From positions 33,331-97,330 of the forward strand of contig CAZDWC010000008.1 in assembly GCA_964509075.1 (NCBI GenBank): a stretch of 64,000 nucleotides of DNA, given 5' to 3'. Source of the DNA: an uncultured Pseudomonadales bacterium. GTDB lineage: Bacteria; Pseudomonadota; Gammaproteobacteria; Pseudomonadales; UBA7239. The notes under the pieces are model-generated. The model did no database searches and had not been told where the DNA came from. It worked only from the letters and a program-made list of their open reading frames with translations. Shown here in pieces: positions 21,236 to 29,132 of this stretch (its first letter is position 1; the number at the start of each line of letters is the position of its first letter). A program made the position numbers and the translations under genes.

Positions 21236-22896
21236 TCAAAACAAGGTATTGTCACCCTCGCCGTTGCCGGCAAACTTGAAGTAGCTGACCTCTTTGCGGA
21301 CTGCCTGTGCTACTTGATCAAGATTAACCGCCGAAGCGGATATGCCCAGTGCTGCATCAGCATTCAGGCGGCTCATGTCGGCAATATCAGCGATCTTGCC
21401 GGCAATATCCTGCATGGCCTGCTGCTGTTCCTGCAAGGCGTAACTGATCACCCCGATCTGCGCGCCCGCCAGCAGTGAATCACTGCGGATGCCCTGCATG
21501 GCAGTCTGCGCCTCCTGCGACAGCGACATCCCGCTTTCGACATGCTGCGCATTGTCCTGGATTGCCTGCACAATCAGGTCTGTGGTCTGGCGGATGTCGC
21601 CAATAATACCGGCGATGGACGCCGTGGCCTGTGTCGTGTTGCTCGCCAGTTTGCGCACCTCATCTGCCACCACGGCAAACCCGCGCCCGGACTCACCAGC
21701 CCGCGCTGCCTCGATGGCGGCGTTCAGAGCCAGAAGATTGGTCTGCCCGGATACATCCTTGATGGCCGCGCGATGAGACCTTCGATTTCCTCCACACAGC
21801 GATTCAGCGCCGTCACCAATGAAACGGAGGCATTGACGGATGTCTGCGCGATACCGAGTTCGACAACCATATTTTCGATAAGCCGGTTGCCTTGCTGCGC
21901 ACTTTCACTGCTGCGTTGTGCCTGAGCATTGGCATCTGCGGCACGCGCTGCAATTTGCTGCGCGCCACTGTTCACTTGCTCCACCGAGCCCAGAATACTG
22001 AGCGTGGCTTCGTTCTGCTCACCGCAATTGACAGACATCGTCCGAGCCTGATCGCGCAGCTGACCGAATGCGTTGAGCATCAACCACACTTGCCCGTTGA
22101 GACTGGTAGCCACATCCGTCCAGCGCGCCCGCATGCTGGCCAGATGCGCCATCAGGCTGCGGGTGTCGCCCGGCGCAACAGTGACCACCTGAGCCAGATC
22201 ACCTTGCGACAGCTTTTCGGCGAGCGATACACCATCCGCCGGCTCGCCGCCCAGTTGCCGAAAAACCTGCTGATAGAGATGACGACCACCGAACAAGATG
22301 CTGACGGCGATCAGAATCGATAACCCGACAGTGATGATGCGTGTCAACCGCAACAGTTTTTCAACGCGCCCCACGGTCTCGGTCTGCTGCTGATTGATCT
22401 TACCCTCCAGCAGTGTCAGCGCATCCTGCAAACTGTCACTGCTGTCATCAAACCCGCCCTTGCGTTTCATGATCACATTGCCGGCCGCCTGGCTCTGCTT
22501 ATATGCAGCCACCATCTCCATACCCGTATCGAACAACTGCTGTGCCTTTGCTGATAGCGCCTGCGTATCATCCGCCAATGTCGGATCGATTTCGGTGATG
22601 CGGGCTAATGCTTGATTGACTTGTTCCAGAGCTTTTTTGCCGTCATCAATACCATCTTGTTCACCTGTGGCACTGGCATCCGTCAGGTATTGCTGGATCT
22701 GGATCACCTCCCGCCGGGCCCATCCCACATTTTCCACCAACAAATCGGTTACGTTATGTTCGTGCTCGCTGGTCTTCTGTACTTCAAACAACATGACCGA
22801 CACCGACACTGCAATAACAGCCGTCATCAATACCGACAGCAGTACAAAACCGGTCAGGAAAGGCTTGAGACGCAAGCTGTTATTTTGGCCAGACAC
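21236..22896 (-). pseudogene. Methyl-accepting chemotaxis protein, frameshifted at about 21767-21772
   Basis: TM1, periplasmic helical sensor, TM2, LGGEP HAMP-like segment. The signalling hairpin ([40 protein letters not shown]) lies in a different frame after ATC-GCG-CG-GCC; removing one CG gives a continuous MCP. GTG start at 22896 inferred. A sequencing error cannot be excluded. Confidence 0.8.
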
Positions 22897-22973
22897 ACAC
22901 TCACCATCACATCGCTGCCCGCAGCAGCCCATGATGTGAGTGTAGTTGGCATTTACCACACAACCAGAAAGGT

Positions 22974-24062
22974 CTATTCGGGTCGGTGCTCGCGCGCCAG
23001 ATAGTCGTGAGACTGCATCTCCAGCAGGCGGCTCTGCGTGCGCTGGAATTCGAAGGTGAGTTTGCCACCGCTGTAGAGCTGCTCCAGTGGCTTGTCTGCC
23101 GAAATCACCATCTTGACGTTGCGGTCGTAGAACTCGTCCACCAGATTGATGAAGCGCCGCACCTGATCGTCGATCCCCCGATGCAGGGCCGGCACGTTGG
23201 ACAGCAGCACCGTGTGGTACTCGCGCGCCAGCTCGATGTAATCGTTTTGCGAGCGCGGGCCGTCGCACAAGGCCGTGAAATCGAACCAGGCGACATCATC
23301 GGCTACCTTGCGCGCCCGTATCGTGCGCCCTTCGATTTCCAGATCGACATTTTCTTCCCCCGGCACAGCGGACAGCGCGGCAAAGCTGCGGGACAAGCTG
23401 GCCTCCGCTTCCGCATCCAACGGTTCATGGTACAACTCGGCCTGCTCCAGCGTGCGCAGGCGGTAATCGGTGCCGCCATCTACATTCAACACCTCGACAT
23501 GCGCCTTCAGCACTGCAATCGCCGGCAGGAAGCGCTCGCGTTGCAGGCCGTTCTCGTAGAGGCGATCCGGCACGATATTGGAGGTAGCCACCAGGCTGAC
23601 GCCGCGCGCAAACAGCTTTTCCATCAAATTGCCGAGGATCATGGCGTCGGCGATATCGGAGACGAAGAACTCGTCAAAGCACAGCACCCGCCCTTCGGCG
23701 GCAATACGGTCGGCCACGATGTCGAGCGGGTTTTTCTGGTCTTTCAGTGTGCGGATTTCCTGATGCACGCGGCGCATGAAGCGGTGAAAGTGCAGGCGCA
23801 GCTTGTTATCGAACGGCAGCGATTCGAAGAAAGTGTCCATCAGGTAGGTCTTGCCACGGCCGACACCACCCCAGAAATACAGCCCCTTGCACGGCGTCTT
23901 GTTGCGGCGCAACAGCCCGGCAAACAAACCGCTGCCAGCGGGGCGCGCGAGCAGGTCATCGTAGAGGCGCTGCAGGTTCTCGACCGCCATTTTCTGGGCC
24001 GGGTCGGCGACAAAATCCGGCCGAAGCAAGTCCTGCTGGTAGCGTTGCAGTGGAGTCATCAT
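22974..24062 (-). CDS. zapE: Cell division ATPase ZapE (AFG1 family)
   Basis: GLYFWGGVGRGKTYLMD, CFDEFFVSDIADAM, ATSNIVPDRLYENGLQR, RRFINLVDEFYD, FQRTQSRLLEMQS. Confidence 0.93.
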   Translation of the reverse strand: MMTPLQRYQQDLLRPDFVADPAQKMAVENLQRLYDDLLARPAGSGLFAGLLRRNKTPCKGLYFWGGVGRGKTYLMDTFFESLPFDNKLRLHFHRFMRRVHQEIRTLKDQKNPLDIVADRIAAEGRVLCFDEFFVSDIADAMILGNLMEKLFARGVSLVATSNIVPDRLYENGLQRERFLPAIAVLKAHVEVLNVDGGTDYRLRTLEQAELYHEPLDAEAEASLSRSFAALSAVPGEENVDLEIEGRTIRARKVADDVAWFDFTALCDGPRSQNDYIELAREYHTVLLSNVPALHRGIDDQVRRFINLVDEFYDRNVKMVISADKPLEQLYSGGKLTFEFQRTQSRLLEMQSHDYLAREHRPE

Positions 24063-24121: not shown

Positions 24122-25339
24122 TCAGGGATGCACTTGCTCCTGAACGCTGCTGCCGCGATATATGGCGTTCAGACTGAAAACCGGCATTCCGGTAATTGTC
24201 GGGAATGCGTCCAGCCCGTCGGGAACGCCATCGCCATCGGTGTCACGCGCCTGGGCCAATGTCAGACCAGTTATCTGTGCCGCATAGGATTCGGCATAGA
24301 ACTCGTCGAGATTGCGCGAACCGTCACCGTCGGCATCCTGCACGGCATCCGCCGCATCAAAACGATCCAGACCCCAGAAATTTTCAAACCAGTCCGGCAT
24401 GCCGTCGGCGTCCGTGTCATCGGAAAACTTCGGCAACTGCGCAGCGATATTGTTGATGGCCAGCACCGCATCGGCGCCATTGCTCAAGCTGCTGTCCACA
24501 CCGCAGGCCTTGGCTATCCCCAGCAAACCGACACAGGCCTGCGTTGCAGAAGAAAGCCGCGACAGCGCGATGGCATTGCCATACAGCGCCACCTGCTGTG
24601 ACATGTGATGCGCCATCACATCCACAAAGTCATTGGCCACGCCATAACCGGATGCATAGGCATACGCTTTACCGGCGTTGGCCTCACCCGTGGCCAAGCG
24701 TGAATGCACCACTCCCATCAAATGACCCAGCTCGTGCACCAGCACGTCGTTGGCGCAATTGACGGACACGTGCGCATAGGCGTAGCCGCCCAGCGCCCAG
24801 TAATTGAGTGCGGGATTATTGATATCCCCCAGAAAATACGCCTTGCCGCAAAGGCCGTCGCTCTTGTAGGGACGCAGCAGCACCACAAAATCCGCCTGTG
24901 CCTGCATACGCACACGGTTGATACCCGCAAACGCATAGTGCGTCTTGTTGGCAAGATGCGCGAAAGCGGTGGCGGTGCTGTTGTTGTTGTCATACTGCGC
25001 CAGCGTTTGCCCGGCCACACTCAACTGCAGATTGACTCCGCTGCTGCTGTAAACCGTGTTGGCCGTGTTAAGCAACACATTGATGCGATTGCCGACCGCC
25101 GATTCACTGCCATACAGGCGCACAACATCCGGCGTGTAGACAAACAATACAGTTATCGGATTCGCAGTGCTTGCATCCAGCGTTTCCATTGCCATCAGGT
25201 TCATACGCTGGACGGATGCGTCAGCCGGCACCGGCGGCAGAAACGGCGGCTCCGCAGTGTCGAGCTCGTCTGCTGCACCCATCCCGACCAGCAACATCAG
25301 CCACAAGCCGACACAAGCGATAATCTTGTTGTTGTTCAT
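24122..25339 (-). CDS. Secreted metzincin (reprolysin/M12B-like) metallopeptidase with C-terminal DxDxDG Ca-binding repeats
   Basis: Signal peptide; HELGHLMGVVH zinc motif; candidate Met-turn (DVMA); DTDADGMPD, DADGDG and DTDGDGVPD repeats. Confidence 0.85.
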   Translation of the reverse strand: MNNNKIIACVGLWLMLLVGMGAADELDTAEPPFLPPVPADASVQRMNLMAMETLDASTANPITVLFVYTPDVVRLYGSESAVGNRINVLLNTANTVYSSSGVNLQLSVAGQTLAQYDNNNSTATAFAHLANKTHYAFAGINRVRMQAQADFVVLLRPYKSDGLCGKAYFLGDINNPALNYWALGGYAYAHVSVNCANDVLVHELGHLMGVVHSRLATGEANAGKAYAYASGYGVANDFVDVMAHHMSQQVALYGNAIALSRLSSATQACVGLLGIAKACGVDSSLSNGADAVLAINNIAAQLPKFSDDTDADGMPDWFENFWGLDRFDAADAVQDADGDGSRNLDEFYAESYAAQITGLTLAQARDTDGDGVPDGLDAFPTITGMPVFSLNAIYRGSSVQEQVHP

Positions 25340-25385: not shown

Positions 25386-25413
25386 AAAAGAAAAGGCCCC
25401 TTGCGGAGCCTTT
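25386..25413 (-). terminator. Intrinsic terminator of porin/PBP cassette 2
   Basis: Minus strand AGGCTCC-GCAA-GGGGCCT then TTTCTTTT. Confidence 0.8.
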
Positions 25414-25439
25414 CCCGATACTGCCTGTTAACGGATGGA

Positions 25440-25874
25440 TCAAGGCACTTTCAGCAGCACCTTTACATCACCGGTGACGGCAGATGCATCCACATACCCT
25501 ATGACATTGGGATTGGCGGCCACCATTGCGATCACTTCAGCATTCCCAGACAGCTTTTTCGGTGGCTCTCCCTTGCCGGTGAAGATCAGGCGCGACCAGT
25601 AGGCATCGAGCTGATCGGCATCTTTCCTGACGATTTTTTCATTGAACTCGGCGCGTACAGGCTGATCATCCTTCTGATCTACGGGCAGCATTTTTACGCC
25701 ATTCGGCAGTGTATCAGTCTTGGCCAGAAACAAACTTGCCATCTCATCCTGGCTGATCGCGTCCAGCGCAACAGACGGATGCACGACAACCGCCACTTCA
25801 GCGCGCACCCACTGCGACACACCCAACAGAGTCATCAATAAAAACAGAACATGCTTGTGATGTATGTTTTTCAT
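25440..25874 (-). CDS. Small periplasmic PBP-like protein (family usually annotated phosphate ABC substrate-binding), copy 2
   Basis: Signal peptide; YWSRLIFTGKGEPPK and VAANPNVIGYVD; GGAGG RBS before ATG 25874. About 144 aa, i.e. about one PBP lobe. Confidence 0.75.
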   Translation of the reverse strand: MKNIHHKHVLFLLMTLLGVSQWVRAEVAVVVHPSVALDAISQDEMASLFLAKTDTLPNGVKMLPVDQKDDQPVRAEFNEKIVRKDADQLDAYWSRLIFTGKGEPPKKLSGNAEVIAMVAANPNVIGYVDASAVTGDVKVLLKVP

Positions 25875-25884
25875 CATCGCCTCC

Positions 25885-27087
25885 TCAAAATACCGCATCA
25901 AGAGCGATGGTGAAAACGTTGATGGGATCACCGTCGTAACTGGCATCCTTGACCACAAACAGCGGCGCAGAATCATCGTCCGGATCAATTTGCTGCCACT
26001 CGAATTTGAGTGCAGTGTGGCGCGCCACATTCCAGCGCAACCCGGCAGTAATCGAATCCTGATTCACCGTGTTGTCATGAACAAACTGCATCGTGCCGCC
26101 GGCCAGCATTCCCGGCATGAGCGCAGCCGCAGCCACTTCATCGTCATAATTCTCATCGGTTTTCAGTTTTGAAAATGTGAGGTGCGGTGTCAACTTGTGA
26201 TACTGATAGGCTACCGTGGCATACCAGCCGGTGGTGTTGGCCATCAAACCATCGGTGCCGCGCTTGGTGTATTCACTGATAAAGCGCCAGTTATCCAGAT
26301 TGGCATCCAGCCCTACACCATCAAACGTGCCATGCCTGTCCGTGATGCCAAACTTGTCTGCCACGGATGGAAAGCCAGCCATTTCCAACCCGCCGAGAAA
26401 ACCGTCAAGCGCATCAATGCCTTTGATGTCAAAATCACCTTCGGTGTGACCCGCGTGCAGCGTCAGCCAGTCATTGCTTGCAGATGCATGGATGCCCCAC
26501 AAATTTGTCACTTCCAGTTTGCCGTCCTGGCCAGGCATGATCACCCTGTTATCCGTTTTGCCAAAAAACGGTTGCACATTGACCTGCATCGACGATACAG
26601 GCACGGAATAAAGCAGATCGGCACCGTCAAAGCGACTGAAGCCCAACTGCCCATAAACATCCACCGGCGGTCTTACCCATGGATAGCTGTAACCCACTTC
26701 CAGCGAATCGGAAAACATGAAAAACGGAATTCGCAAACGCCCTACTCGCACATCAAGGTTGTTGACCATTTCGTAGGTCAAAAACAACCATTCCAGATGG
26801 GGATCGTAATCGTCATCATAGCCTCGTGACACCAACTGCGCCGTCACATCCAGATCCGTGAGCAGCGGAGCCTTCACCTGCAATCCGGCAACGGAATCCG
26901 TGTTCCAGTTCACGCCATCATTCGCCTCATAAAAGGCAATGTCCTTGTTGTCGTTGTATACGGCAGCCAGCGTGAGAAAACCATCCACTTTGACCGCAGT
27001 ACCCGTATCCAGTGCATGAGAAGCAGCACCCGGCAACAACCATGTTGCTGCCAGCAACACCTTGTACGCTTGCAAGAGTTTTTTCAT
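25885..27087 (-). CDS. Outer-membrane porin, copy 2
   Basis: Signal peptide; GRLRIPFFMFSDSLEVGYSYPWVRPPVDVY; C-terminal FTIALDAVF. Confidence 0.8.
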   Translation of the reverse strand: MKKLLQAYKVLLAATWLLPGAASHALDTGTAVKVDGFLTLAAVYNDNKDIAFYEANDGVNWNTDSVAGLQVKAPLLTDLDVTAQLVSRGYDDDYDPHLEWLFLTYEMVNNLDVRVGRLRIPFFMFSDSLEVGYSYPWVRPPVDVYGQLGFSRFDGADLLYSVPVSSMQVNVQPFFGKTDNRVIMPGQDGKLEVTNLWGIHASASNDWLTLHAGHTEGDFDIKGIDALDGFLGGLEMAGFPSVADKFGITDRHGTFDGVGLDANLDNWRFISEYTKRGTDGLMANTTGWYATVAYQYHKLTPHLTFSKLKTDENYDDEVAAAALMPGMLAGGTMQFVHDNTVNQDSITAGLRWNVARHTALKFEWQQIDPDDDSAPLFVVKDASYDGDPINVFTIALDAVF

Positions 27088-27164
27088 AGGTTCCAGACTC
27101 CAGAAATGTTCCATGCGTTTCTGAGCCTAGATCAGCATTTGTAACTCGTCCACCAGCCTATACA

Positions 27165-27192
27165 AAAAGAAAAGGCCCCTTACGGAGCCTTT
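27165..27192 (-). terminator. Intrinsic terminator of porin/PBP cassette 1
   Basis: Minus strand AGGCTCC-GTAA-GGGGCCT then TTTCTTTT; near copy of 25386-25413. Confidence 0.8.
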
Positions 27193-27218
27193 TCGGATGT
27201 TGCCTGTTGCTGGATGGA

Positions 27219-27647
27219 TCAAGGCACTTTCAACAACACCTTGACGCCACCGGTGACCGCAGAGGCATCCACATAGCCGATGATGTTCGGGTTGGCGGAT
27301 ACCAGCGCGACCACTTCAGCATTGTCAGCCACTTTTTTCGGCGGCTCACCTTTGCCGGTGAAGATCAGGCGCGACCAGTAGGCGTTCAGCTGCGCGGCAT
27401 CCTTCTTCACCACTTTGCTGTAGAACTCTTCACGCGCTTTCTGGCTGTCTTCCTGATCGATCGGCACCATCTTGGTGCCGTCCGGCAATGCACTGACCTT
27501 GCTCAGGAAAATATCCGCTGCCGCATCAGCACTGATGTCTGCTACGCCAACACTGCTGTTGACGATAACCGCGACTTCAGCCTGCGCTGCTGCTGCACCC
27601 AGTGCGATAGCCGATGCGAGTAGTGTTTTTGTGAGTATCTTTTTCAT
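27219..27647 (-). CDS. Small periplasmic PBP-like protein, copy 1
   Basis: Signal peptide (AAAQA|EVAV); YWSRLIFTGKGEPPK and VSANPNIIGYVD; AGGAG RBS before ATG 27647. Confidence 0.75.
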   Translation of the reverse strand: MKKILTKTLLASAIALGAAAAQAEVAVIVNSSVGVADISADAAADIFLSKVSALPDGTKMVPIDQEDSQKAREEFYSKVVKKDAAQLNAYWSRLIFTGKGEPPKKVADNAEVVALVSANPNIIGYVDASAVTGGVKVLLKVP

Positions 27648-27662
27648 GATGTCCACTCCTTA

Positions 27663-29132
27663 TCAAAACACGGCATCGAGTGCGAAGGTGTAGGCGTTGG
27701 ATTCATCGCCTGGACTATCTTCATCGCTAAATCCGCCATGGTTTTCCATGTCGTAGAAGTGATCCCATTGCAGTTTGGCAGACAAGCTGTTGCTCAACTC
27801 GCGGCGCAGACCGAGTGACACCGACTTGCGTGCAACAGGTACCGCATTATTGGCAGCCAACACAGAGCTCTTCTCATCGTCATAAGTCATTGCATATGTC
27901 GCATAAGGCGTCCATTGGTTGATGCGATAGCCACCCGTTACATACGCCGCAACACTGTCACTGAACAAAGCTGCGCGCTTGGTATCCAGCTGCGCCACTT
28001 CAGATATCATGAACAGGCTGCCGTCATCATACTGCGCGCCCAAGGCATAGTAATCAAACGTATCACTACCTGACTTATGCAGATAACCGCCGGGCGTGCA
28101 GTAAGCTCCAGCTGCATCCGTGTCACACGAGTCAAAGCCCGTCAGGGCCAGAACCGCAGCAGCAGGATCACTCAGCGCAGGGATATACATGTCCAATGTA
28201 CCAGGCAAGGGCGCTGGAGCAGGTATGGCTGAATAAGCAGAGTCAGTTGTGGCCAACACCGATCCAGACCGGACGTCAATCGTGCCATCAATCGACAAGG
28301 TTGCAATCATAGCTCTGGCCGTCCATGAGCCCCAGTTTGACGTCAGGTTGATGCCATACACGTCCTGCAACGCAACATCTGTCTTGATGTCCTGAGATCC
28401 ATCGGCATGATCAGTATTGGAAGAGCCGCCGGCGAAAAGCTGCAGCGTGTTGTTGGTTGGCCCTGCATTGAATTTGTAAAGCGCATCTGCACCATTAAAC
28501 GACGTAATAGCCGTTGTATACATTTCGGTTGGTGGACGCACCCATGGATAGCTGTAGCCAACGTCCAGCGTCTCGGAGTACATGTAGAACGGCACGCGCA
28601 GGCGACCCATGCGCAATTTCAGATCATCCGTCATCTTGTAACCGATATAAGCCCATTCTGCAGACGTCTGCCATGAGCTGGAAGAATTGCCGAGACCCTG
28701 GCCACGGCTGCGGCCGATCAGCTGCACAGTAGCATCGACCTTTTCGTCCATTTTGTAATTGAATTGCAGACCCATTTTCGCATCACCTGCGAAATTCGTG
28801 GTGTCATCAAGCTCGTAAGTCCCCAGCTTGTTGTCGCTTTTGGAAACTGCCGCCGTCATGAAACCGTTCATCTTGAACTTCTCGGCATCGGAATCCATCT
28901 TCGCCTTGATGTCATCAATCTGCTTGGCATTGCGCTTGTTCTGCTTCTCCAGATCCTGCACATAGACCACGCCGCCGTTGCTTTTCAGATCCTTGACTTC
29001 GGATTGCAGCGCCTTGATCTGGGCTTCGTATTTCTGGAAGCGCGCCTCGACCTCTTTGTCGCTCATGGCGTGCACAGCGGGCGTTGCCACCGTGGCCGCA
29101 ATCAGCGTGGCCAGTAGTTTTTTCTTATCCAT
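27663..29132 (-). CDS. Outer-membrane porin with N-terminal coiled coil, copy 1
   Basis: Signal peptide; about 60-aa heptad-like segment; GRLRVPFYMYSETLDVGYSYPWVRPPTEMY; C-terminal YTFALDAVF. Confidence 0.8.
   Translation of the reverse strand: MDKKKLLATLIAATVATPAVHAMSDKEVEARFQKYEAQIKALQSEVKDLKSNGGVVYVQDLEKQNKRNAKQIDDIKAKMDSDAEKFKMNGFMTAAVSKSDNKLGTYELDDTTNFAGDAKMGLQFNYKMDEKVDATVQLIGRSRGQGLGNSSSSWQTSAEWAYIGYKMTDDLKLRMGRLRVPFYMYSETLDVGYSYPWVRPPTEMYTTAITSFNGADALYKFNAGPTNNTLQLFAGGSSNTDHADGSQDIKTDVALQDVYGINLTSNWGSWTARAMIATLSIDGTIDVRSGSVLATTDSAYSAIPAPAPLPGTLDMYIPALSDPAAAVLALTGFDSCDTDAAGAYCTPGGYLHKSGSDTFDYYALGAQYDDGSLFMISEVAQLDTKRAALFSDSVAAYVTGGYRINQWTPYATYAMTYDDEKSSVLAANNAVPVARKSVSLGLRRELSNSLSAKLQWDHFYDMENHGGFSDEDSPGDESNAYTFALDAVF

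Follow-up and report, generated by a model that had tools for sequence, protein, structure and literature searches.

What might a porin and a small secreted protein labelled as phosphate-binding do together, when their genes are repeated in tandem and no transporter gene lies beside them? This question is raised by a window of 64,000 nucleotides (nt) from contig CAZDWC010000008.1 of an uncultured Pseudomonadales bacterium, the whole stretch of DNA that was analysed, in which two consecutive two-gene units on the minus strand follow the order porin A, PBP-A, terminator, porin B, PBP-B and terminator-like hairpin (PBP, periplasmic binding protein-like). Porin A (27663-29132, 489 amino acids) is an open reading frame (ORF) with a signal peptide, a periplasmic N-terminal coiled-coil segment and a beta-barrel ending in ALDAVF, and porin B (25885-27087, 400 amino acids) is predicted to be a 16-stranded barrel with an L3 constriction loop. 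PBP-A (27219-27647, 142 amino acids) and PBP-B (25440-25874, 144 amino acids) are both secreted, single-lobe relatives of lobe II of the phosphate-binding protein PstS, and removal of the signal peptides leaves mature proteins of about 120 residues. An earlier note on this DNA had described this gene order and its tight linkage, and both hold, the gap from porin to PBP gene being 15 nt in cassette A and 10 nt in cassette B. The same note had seen no ATP-binding cassette (ABC) permease or ATPase next to the genes, and none was found beside the cassettes in the window, whose flanks carry dacA, ybeD, lipB and lipA upstream and a secreted metzincin protease, a ZapE-like ATPase and a chemotaxis protein of the methyl-accepting type (MCP) downstream.

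Established by the analysis are the structure of the gene pair, the folds of its products, the absence of a phosphate site, the conservation of the linkage and the presence of signalling genes in the neighbourhood. As for function, we tentatively propose, at a little under an even chance, that the cassette provides a dedicated pore and a periplasmic one-lobe co-receptor, which signals to inner-membrane proteins rather than imports. The evidence on each part, and the other explanations that it has to be weighed against, are given below.

The one-lobe protein and its lost phosphate site

The AlphaFold2 model of PBP-A (pLDDT 88) is a single alpha/beta lobe, and its best PDB matches in Foldseek are all PstS (4exl, 1twy and 4gd5), the alignments taking in the whole query (query-normalised TM-score, TMq, 0.63) but only roughly one third to one half of every PstS target (TMt 0.35). 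The two small proteins score 23.9 and 12.1 bits with the NCBIfam model TIGR02136, whose cut-off is 206.6, and the match of 23.9 bits falls on positions 118-225 of this 295-position PstS model; profile alignment to PstS 4q8r/4exl places the small protein on lobe II of PstS, whose motifs IF.GK, GKG and IGYV are still recognisable in it. Neither PBP-A nor PBP-B has a match in Pfam. A segment W-x-R-x-x-F-T/S-G-x-G-x-P-P is invariant across the one-lobe family, and its GKG and IGYV elements we take to be an inheritance from PstS and not a new anion site. The one-lobe family is derived secondarily from PstS.

The phosphate ligands of PstS are, in the E. coli numbering, Thr10, Phe11, Ser38 and Asp56 of lobe I and Arg135 and Ser139-Gly140-Thr141 of lobe II. 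In the profile alignment, the PstS sequence S/N-R-x-x-G-S-G-T-R is replaced in the small protein by D-Q-x-x-G-x-x-x-R, so that the equivalent of Arg135 is Gln and the S-G-T is unconserved, and the protein has no lobe I, where the remaining half of the site would lie. These losses bear directly on the explanation suggested by the public annotation of the small protein, 'phosphate ABC transporter substrate-binding protein', and by its weak TIGR02136 match, namely that it is a true phosphate-binding protein that serves Pst together with a phosphate porin. We regard this as very improbable, given the missing lobe, the replaced ligands and a match of 23.9 bits at best where 206.6 are called for; the phosphate label is an annotation carried over from weak similarity.

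The regulation of the genes argues against it as well. The genome encodes a complete pstS-pstC-pstA-pstB-phoU operon, with its own full-length PstS, on another contig (C4), and a Pho-box scan with CTGTCATNNNNCTGTCAT found the pstS gene preceded by a perfect 14/14 box, CTGTCATATAACTGTCAT. This site belongs to a series of three phased Pho boxes before pstS (C4:55340-55560; 14/14, 12/14 and 10/14), which serves as the positive control of the scan. Upstream of porin A the best site reached 9/14, which is the chance level, with 12,666 such sites genome-wide, and porin B had none. A phosphate/Pst role of the cassettes was rejected on this contrast between a perfect site at pstS and no Pho box above chance at the cassettes. 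The objection of the earlier note that the PstS annotation does not fit is thereby sustained on four grounds: a single lobe, replaced ligands, no Pho box, and a true pstSCAB-phoU set elsewhere.

Linkage to the porin and the signalling neighbourhood

To place the pair in a wider context, one genome per species was scanned, which gave 381 loci encoding a relative of the small protein, and 78 loci were kept for the neighbourhood counts. Adjacent porin>PBP pairs on the same strand number 63 in these 78 loci; the gap has a median of 11 nt and is nearly always 3-18 nt, and this pairing is far beyond chance. No transporter, permease, ATPase or catabolic gene recurs beside the pair in the 78 loci, so a conserved linkage with no transporter travelling along, as the earlier note had supposed, is borne out. 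This is a large family, with 529 clusters at 50% identity and E below 1e-30, almost all of proteins of about 140 amino acids. The carriers are mostly marine Pseudomonadales sensu lato, including Thalassolituus, Oleispira, Bacterioplanoides, Ketobacter, strain HdN1, Oceanobacter, Spongiibacteraceae and Pseudohongiella, and further carriers are some Methylococcales, a Gallionella and one alphaproteobacterial contig. Within the window's own genus the gene is present in 9 of 12 genomes, and none of the 7 with a completeness of 90% or more lacks it.

Multiplication of the cassette is also widespread. Two or three tandem porin>PBP cassettes occur in about 10 of the 78 loci, and another genome of the window's genus has two copies 1.9 kb apart. 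A metagenome contig of a relative reads dacA-ybeD-lipB-lipA-porin(461)-PBP(143)-porin(396)-PBP(143), where the numbers are lengths in amino acids and the second porin is 65% identical to porin B; since this repeats the order lipA-porin-PBP-porin-PBP of the window, the tandem is conserved and no recent accident. The order porin>PBP>PBP was found in five more loci (one genome counted twice). In L063, L066, L068/L069 and L083, one porin is followed by two different one-lobe genes, the second of which, in L068/L069 and L083, is long-branched; such an arrangement hints at heterodimers.

The partnership with the porin has been dissolved in two lineages. In a nested subclade of the porin>PBP clade (L015-L028), the porin is lost and the PBP gene is kept between two GGDEF genes; in the Ketobacter-type loci L017 (6260-10767), L024, L025 and L028, the one-lobe gene lies, with no porin, between a PAS-PAS-GGDEF gene and a gene whose product has a transmembrane-periplasmic-transmembrane-PAS3-GGDEF layout. 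In L010 (5262-5687) and L011 (7827-8423), the PBP gene alone stands directly after lipA, which is the chromosomal site of the window's cassettes, and the porin is lost. Because these porin-less groups are nested, the small protein can outlive its porin, and without the porin it stays with enzymes of cyclic di-GMP (c-di-GMP) metabolism. There are also doubled versions, in which a single chain contains two lobes that no linker separates. In a Peptidase_M56 (BlaR1-like) membrane protein, P0222 (L137 452-2686), the C-terminus consists of two one-lobe domains in tandem, where such proteins have their sensor domain. The doubled lobes are in keeping with a joint action of two lobes in binding a ligand or a partner.

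Linkage so tight could also mean that the small protein is an accessory subunit of the porin, a structural or gating partner under the trimer (a plug, a chaperone or a cell-wall tether) with no signalling role. The near-obligate adjacency at 3-18 nt is what such a subunit would lead one to expect, and the pairwise identities of porins and PBPs are correlated with a Pearson r of 0.89, a figure that is confounded by shared ancestry; the paralogue trees of porin and PBP are congruent in 4 quartets and not in 1, with only 5 informative, which speaks neither for nor against a subunit. However, a pure subunit should hardly persist without its porin, as the PBP does in both L010/L011 and L015-L028, nor replace a sensor domain, as the doubled lobes of the BlaR1-type protein do, and we consider this explanation improbable.

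The neighbours of the cassette are in many cases signalling genes. A class III cyclase gene lies directly upstream of the porin gene in 12 Oceanospirillales-type loci, MCP genes adjoin the cassette in several unrelated contexts, and GGDEF/EAL proteins, including those of the 7TMR-DISM, dCache and response-regulator types, are encoded within 8 kb in 38 of the 78 loci. A signalling gene stands at position -1 in 34% and at +1 in 14% of the loci, versus about 7% elsewhere in the same loci as internal control, counts for which the ORF calls are crude and the loci phylogenetically related; with identical contexts collapsed, 16 of 54 distinct contexts have an immediately adjacent signalling gene. The adjacent cyclases, MCPs and 765-residue GGDEF proteins that were checked share a layout of a periplasmic loop between two transmembrane segments. 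The look at the neighbours that the earlier note had recommended has thus turned up GGDEF/EAL, class III cyclase and MCP genes enriched beside the cassette.

The link to c-di-GMP enzymes is closest in a sister clade, to which a third, distant copy in the same genome belongs. This copy (C1:130463-135005, minus strand; L007 4464-9006) reads PBP>porin>dCache_3-PAS-GGDEF-EAL, with a gap of 10 nt from the porin gene to that of the dCache_3-PAS-GGDEF-EAL protein. A search with its PBP in 300 genomes of the class gave matches in 45. Among the 20 sister-clade loci that were fetched, 18 have the order PBP>porin, and in 11, as in the C1 copy, a same-strand gene for 800-980 amino acids comes next; all ten of these following genes that were tested encode dCache_3-(PAS)-GGDEF-EAL proteins. 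The family tree places the PBP>porin clade (support 99) as the sister of the porin>PBP clade.

An uptake function has to be weighed at this point, in which a substrate-specific porin and a periplasmic binder would speed the entry of a single solute, such as an oxyanion, and the binder would pass it to an unlinked transporter. Both parts come from uptake-type families, the small protein from lobe II of PstS; sister-clade porins match Porin_O_P weakly, and the anion-selective Omp32 is among the top structural matches of the porin. Some members of the one-lobe family keep a GS/T-A-S/T-R loop that resembles GSGTR, and the cassette is kept in the small, streamlined genomes of the window's genus. 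A single lobe, however, cannot close on a ligand or dock to an ABC permease as a two-lobed binding protein does, and nutrient scavenging would leave it unexplained that no permease, ATPase or catabolic gene recurs in the 78 loci, that the cassettes lack a Pho box and that the porin-less subclades keep the PBP gene beside GGDEF genes. We therefore hold scavenging to be unlikely, though a serious competitor.

Nor is a signalling role free of difficulties. Besides the limits of the counts given above, it is weighed down by the 38 of 54 distinct contexts in which no signalling gene is adjacent, and none directly adjoins the cassettes of the window, where the nearest is an MCP gene split in two frames. 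The cyclases, MCPs and GGDEF proteins beside the cassette have periplasmic loops that show no homology to one another in profile-profile comparison (probability below 1%), and there is therefore no common docking domain. Moreover, neither the best 150 PBP-like representatives nor the homologues of porins A and B include a porin-PBP fusion.

With these reservations, the co-receptor mechanism that we favour would run as follows. Each cassette would be a two-gene operon for a trimer-type 16-stranded diffusion porin and a translationally coupled, secreted PstS-lobe-II protein. The porin would serve as a dedicated pore, with a constriction loop conserved across the family, and the one-lobe protein, probably a dimer, may bind whatever the pore admits, or the pore itself. 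It would then hand the information to inner-membrane signalling proteins whose sensor domains are periplasmic, such as c-di-GMP enzymes, class III cyclases and chemoreceptors, and nothing would be delivered to an ABC importer. The two cassettes of the window stand alone, so their receiver would have to be encoded elsewhere in the genome. The two porins would present the same pore core under different surfaces, while the two binding proteins would be kept alike by gene conversion.

A bolder generalization, which we consider possible but doubtful, is that the cassette is a modular and portable input device from outer membrane to periplasm, plugged into four or more types of inner-membrane transducer (dCache_3-GGDEF-EAL proteins, 7TMR-DISM or PAS GGDEF proteins, class III cyclases and chemoreceptors) and also used on its own; that homo- or heterodimers of the one-lobe protein rebuild a two-lobed clamp, as a natural split binding protein; and that both parts stem from phosphate uptake, the one from an OprO/P-like porin and the other from PstS.

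How signals pass the outer membrane to reach c-di-GMP, cyclic nucleotide and chemotaxis receptors is a question that has largely been left unaddressed. Should the co-receptor mechanism be true, a dedicated pore and a mini-receptor would decide what reaches the periplasmic sensors in many Proteobacteria of the sea and of fresh waters, the model of lobe duplication and fusion could be probed with a single-lobe binding protein from nature, and the name 'phosphate ABC transporter substrate-binding protein' would be wrong on hundreds of protein clusters. The carriers include cultivable oil-degrading bacteria (Thalassolituus, Oleispira and strain HdN1), which makes the idea directly testable.

Porin conservation, gene conversion and the local setting

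The earlier note had pointed to a family motif and a common ALDAVF end in otherwise divergent porins, and this description is accurate: porins A and B are 29% identical (E 6e-38) and have in common the motif GRLR.PF.M.S..L.VGYSYPWVRPP and the C-terminal ALDAVF. The AlphaFold2 model of porin B (pLDDT 90) has 16 strands, a 32-residue L3 and helical inserts in L5 and L7, and Foldseek matches it to OmpT of V. cholerae, Omp32, OmpF and chitoporin; the sequence identity is 11-15%, the TM-score normalised to the target is about 0.60-0.69, and E is 1e-12 to 1e-14 for OmpT, Omp32 and OmpF. According to this model, the porins are 16-stranded general-type porins with an L3 folded inward and a C-terminal Phe. 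The family motif, GRLRVPFYMYSETLDVGYSYPWVRPP in porin A (28530-28607, minus strand) and GRLRIPFFMFSDSLEVGYSYPWVRPP in porin B (26665-26742, minus strand), is placed by the model at the end of strand 5 plus loop L3, the topology of porin A being taken from porin B.

Profile searches relate these porins to known families only loosely. Porin A has a sub-threshold Pfam match to Porin_4 (18.4 bits versus 27), porin B has no match in Pfam, and neither porin scores above threshold in Pfam or NCBIfam; some of their homologues have precomputed PF13609 or PF13505 matches, and the orthologues of porin A (430-506 amino acids) are all annotated 'hypothetical protein'. The OprP/OprO family (Porin_O_P, PF07396) matches neither porin A nor porin B. 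The sister-clade porins, from the C1 copy and 10 other loci, gave five weak Porin_O_P matches, of which two exceed the cut-off of 20.9 bits, the C1 porin being a marginal pass with 22.1 bits. No porin, OprP and OprO included, was matched when the porin profile was searched against PDB sequences; among the structural matches of porin B, OprP and OprO, whose pores have an arginine ladder and a lysine cluster, appear only in the middle of the list, and the ladder residues are not reliably alignable.

In a 38-sequence porin alignment, conservation is highest in strand 5 and L3 (0.65 each) and lowest in the surface loops L5, L7 and L8 (0.23-0.30). The suggestion of the earlier note that variable porins give ligand specificity finds no support in this pattern, in which the pore constriction is the best conserved part and the variability lies at the surface. 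The difference between porins A and B would thus resemble surface diversification, for example versus phages or grazers, more than differing ligand specificity.

The conservation of L3 bears also on a mechanism in which no small ligand is needed, a sensor of the envelope state by sequestration in the manner of YfiB-YfiR-YfiN. Here the one-lobe protein would sit on an inner-membrane sensor until the porin, through its periplasmic face, its coiled coil or an unassembled form, captures it upon a change of the outer membrane. The sister clade has the three layers that this requires, with one protein in the outer membrane, a small one in the periplasm and a GGDEF-EAL enzyme in the inner membrane; the one-lobe protein has lost the canonical ligand residues, and the spacing of the pair is of the kind seen in translational coupling. 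Porin A has a coiled-coil-like N-terminal extension (28875-29066, minus strand; residues about 23-86) that is predicted to be periplasmic, and in the family a stretch of at least 70 residues precedes the barrel in 17 of 65 porins, while in about 30 it is longer than a signal peptide; the long extensions among those listed are mostly of heptad-like, charged sequence. Porin B, however, is without a coiled coil, neither YfiB nor YfiR is related to the cassette proteins in Pfam searches, and the best conserved part of the porin is the constriction loop and not the periplasmic turns, which argues that passage through the pore matters. For these reasons we assign the sequestration mechanism only a small probability.

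The two small proteins had been called very similar in the earlier note, and so they are, with 60% identity and with YWSRLIFTGKGEPPK identical in both, but the similarity is only in part a matter of constraint. The DNA of the two copies is 59% identical over the first 260 nt of the PBP gene, 83% over the last 170 nt and 85% over the 54 non-coding nt through the terminator, and it falls to 36% after the terminator. The stretch from the 3' part of the PBP gene through the 3' untranslated region and the terminator (27165-27389 for copy A and 25386-25610 for copy B, both on the minus strand) is, as judged from these steps in identity, a gene-conversion tract. Since the tract runs into the non-coding terminator, part of the PBP similarity is concerted evolution and not purely functional constraint. 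In agreement with this, PBP-A and PBP-B fall into one clade with their closest relatives (SH-aLRT 97), though the porins are only 29% identical, and in a relative with the same tandem the two PBPs share lineage-specific residues with each other and not with their positional orthologues. PBPs cluster within the genome also in HdN1, L085, L127 and L008, and not in Oleispira.

Several features of the locus complete the description. PBP-A has AAGGAG 8 nt before its ATG, and an alternative GTG start at 27656 would give 145 amino acids; for porin B, an alternative upstream ATG at 27114 would give 409. Cassette A ends in a strong intrinsic terminator (27169-27194, minus strand), an 11-bp stem with 6 GC pairs followed by a T-run. 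The near-identical terminator-like hairpin of cassette B (about 25391-25414, minus strand) has a T4 tail only, and it was not called by the terminator scan because its T-tract is just 4 long. Rfam gave no relevant match to a riboswitch or structured leader, and the 203-nt leader is no more stable than its shuffles (z -0.36).

Directly 3' of cassette B lies the gene of the metzincin protease (24122-25339, minus strand), which is Reprolysin-like, has Mep72 as its best NCBIfam match and ends in Asp-rich repeats of the calcium-binding type (DTDADGMPD, DADGDGSRN and DTDGDGVPD); it is not a conserved neighbour of the cassette among relatives. The MCP gene (21236-23268, minus strand), three genes downstream of the cassettes, occupies two reading frames that are split near 21700, one ORF encoding the HAMP domain and the beginning of the signalling domain, and another the remainder (VADEVRKLA...). 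It is either a pseudogene or an assembly frameshift; a link between this MCP and the cassettes was considered and rejected, with one weak match only for its periplasmic domain.

Comparison with known systems

A one-lobe protein welded to a porin occurs in none of the nearest known systems, and full-text searches of the literature gave no description of the pairing of a porin with a one-lobe protein. The parts taken singly have closer counterparts. The barrel is like that of the general trimeric porins OmpF, Omp32, V. cholerae OmpT and chitoporin, whereas the cassette porins are larger and have helical inserts in L5 and L7. An N-terminal coiled coil, as in many of the cassette porins, is found in DcaP-type porins. 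In LamB-MalE and OprP/OprO-PstS, an outer-membrane channel and a periplasmic binder belong to one uptake pathway; these pairs, unlike the cassette, are not adjacent two-gene operons, serve ABC importers and use two-lobed binders. PstS itself resembles the small protein in the fold and the motifs of lobe II, but has two lobes and 250-320 amino acids in place of one lobe of about 120, and its pst operon and Pho box are absent here, where the one-lobe protein is encoded beside a porin or a signalling gene.

The three-layered logic has a counterpart in YfiB-YfiR-YfiN (TpbB), where the genes of three proteins lie together, one for the outer membrane, a small one for the periplasm and a c-di-GMP enzyme for the inner membrane. 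The proteins, however, are unrelated, YfiB being an OmpA-like lipoprotein and YfiR not PBP-like; no Pfam or NCBIfam match to either was found in the cassette proteins, nor any such Pfam match in the sister-clade proteins.

Among described proteins, TOL_3188 of Thalassolituus has been called a 'specialised porin' (PMC6304351); it was considered as the same system and rejected, as it adjoins an MMPL/LolA-like gene and belongs to a different one. Isolated lobes of periplasmic binding proteins can fold by themselves, and the shortened forms known from nature are rare and unclear in function (PMC10601554). In contrast to such engineered or truncated single-lobe binding proteins, the one-lobe proteins described here form a large natural family with a fixed genomic partner.

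A close parallel for the proposed role is NspS-MbaA of V. cholerae, in which a relative of binding proteins is encoded beside a GGDEF-EAL protein of the membrane whose sensor domain is periplasmic, and a transporter is lacking (PMC8079147). In this system, and similarly in ScrB-ScrC, LuxP-LuxQ and TorT-TorS, a periplasmic binding protein is the co-receptor of an inner-membrane signalling enzyme. The layout of NspS-MbaA is met with in the C1 copy, in the sister clade and in many relatives, but not in the two cassettes of the window. Moreover, the binding proteins of the NspS-MbaA type are full two-lobed proteins with no dedicated porin, whereas the family reported here combines a single lobe with a porin as its constant partner.

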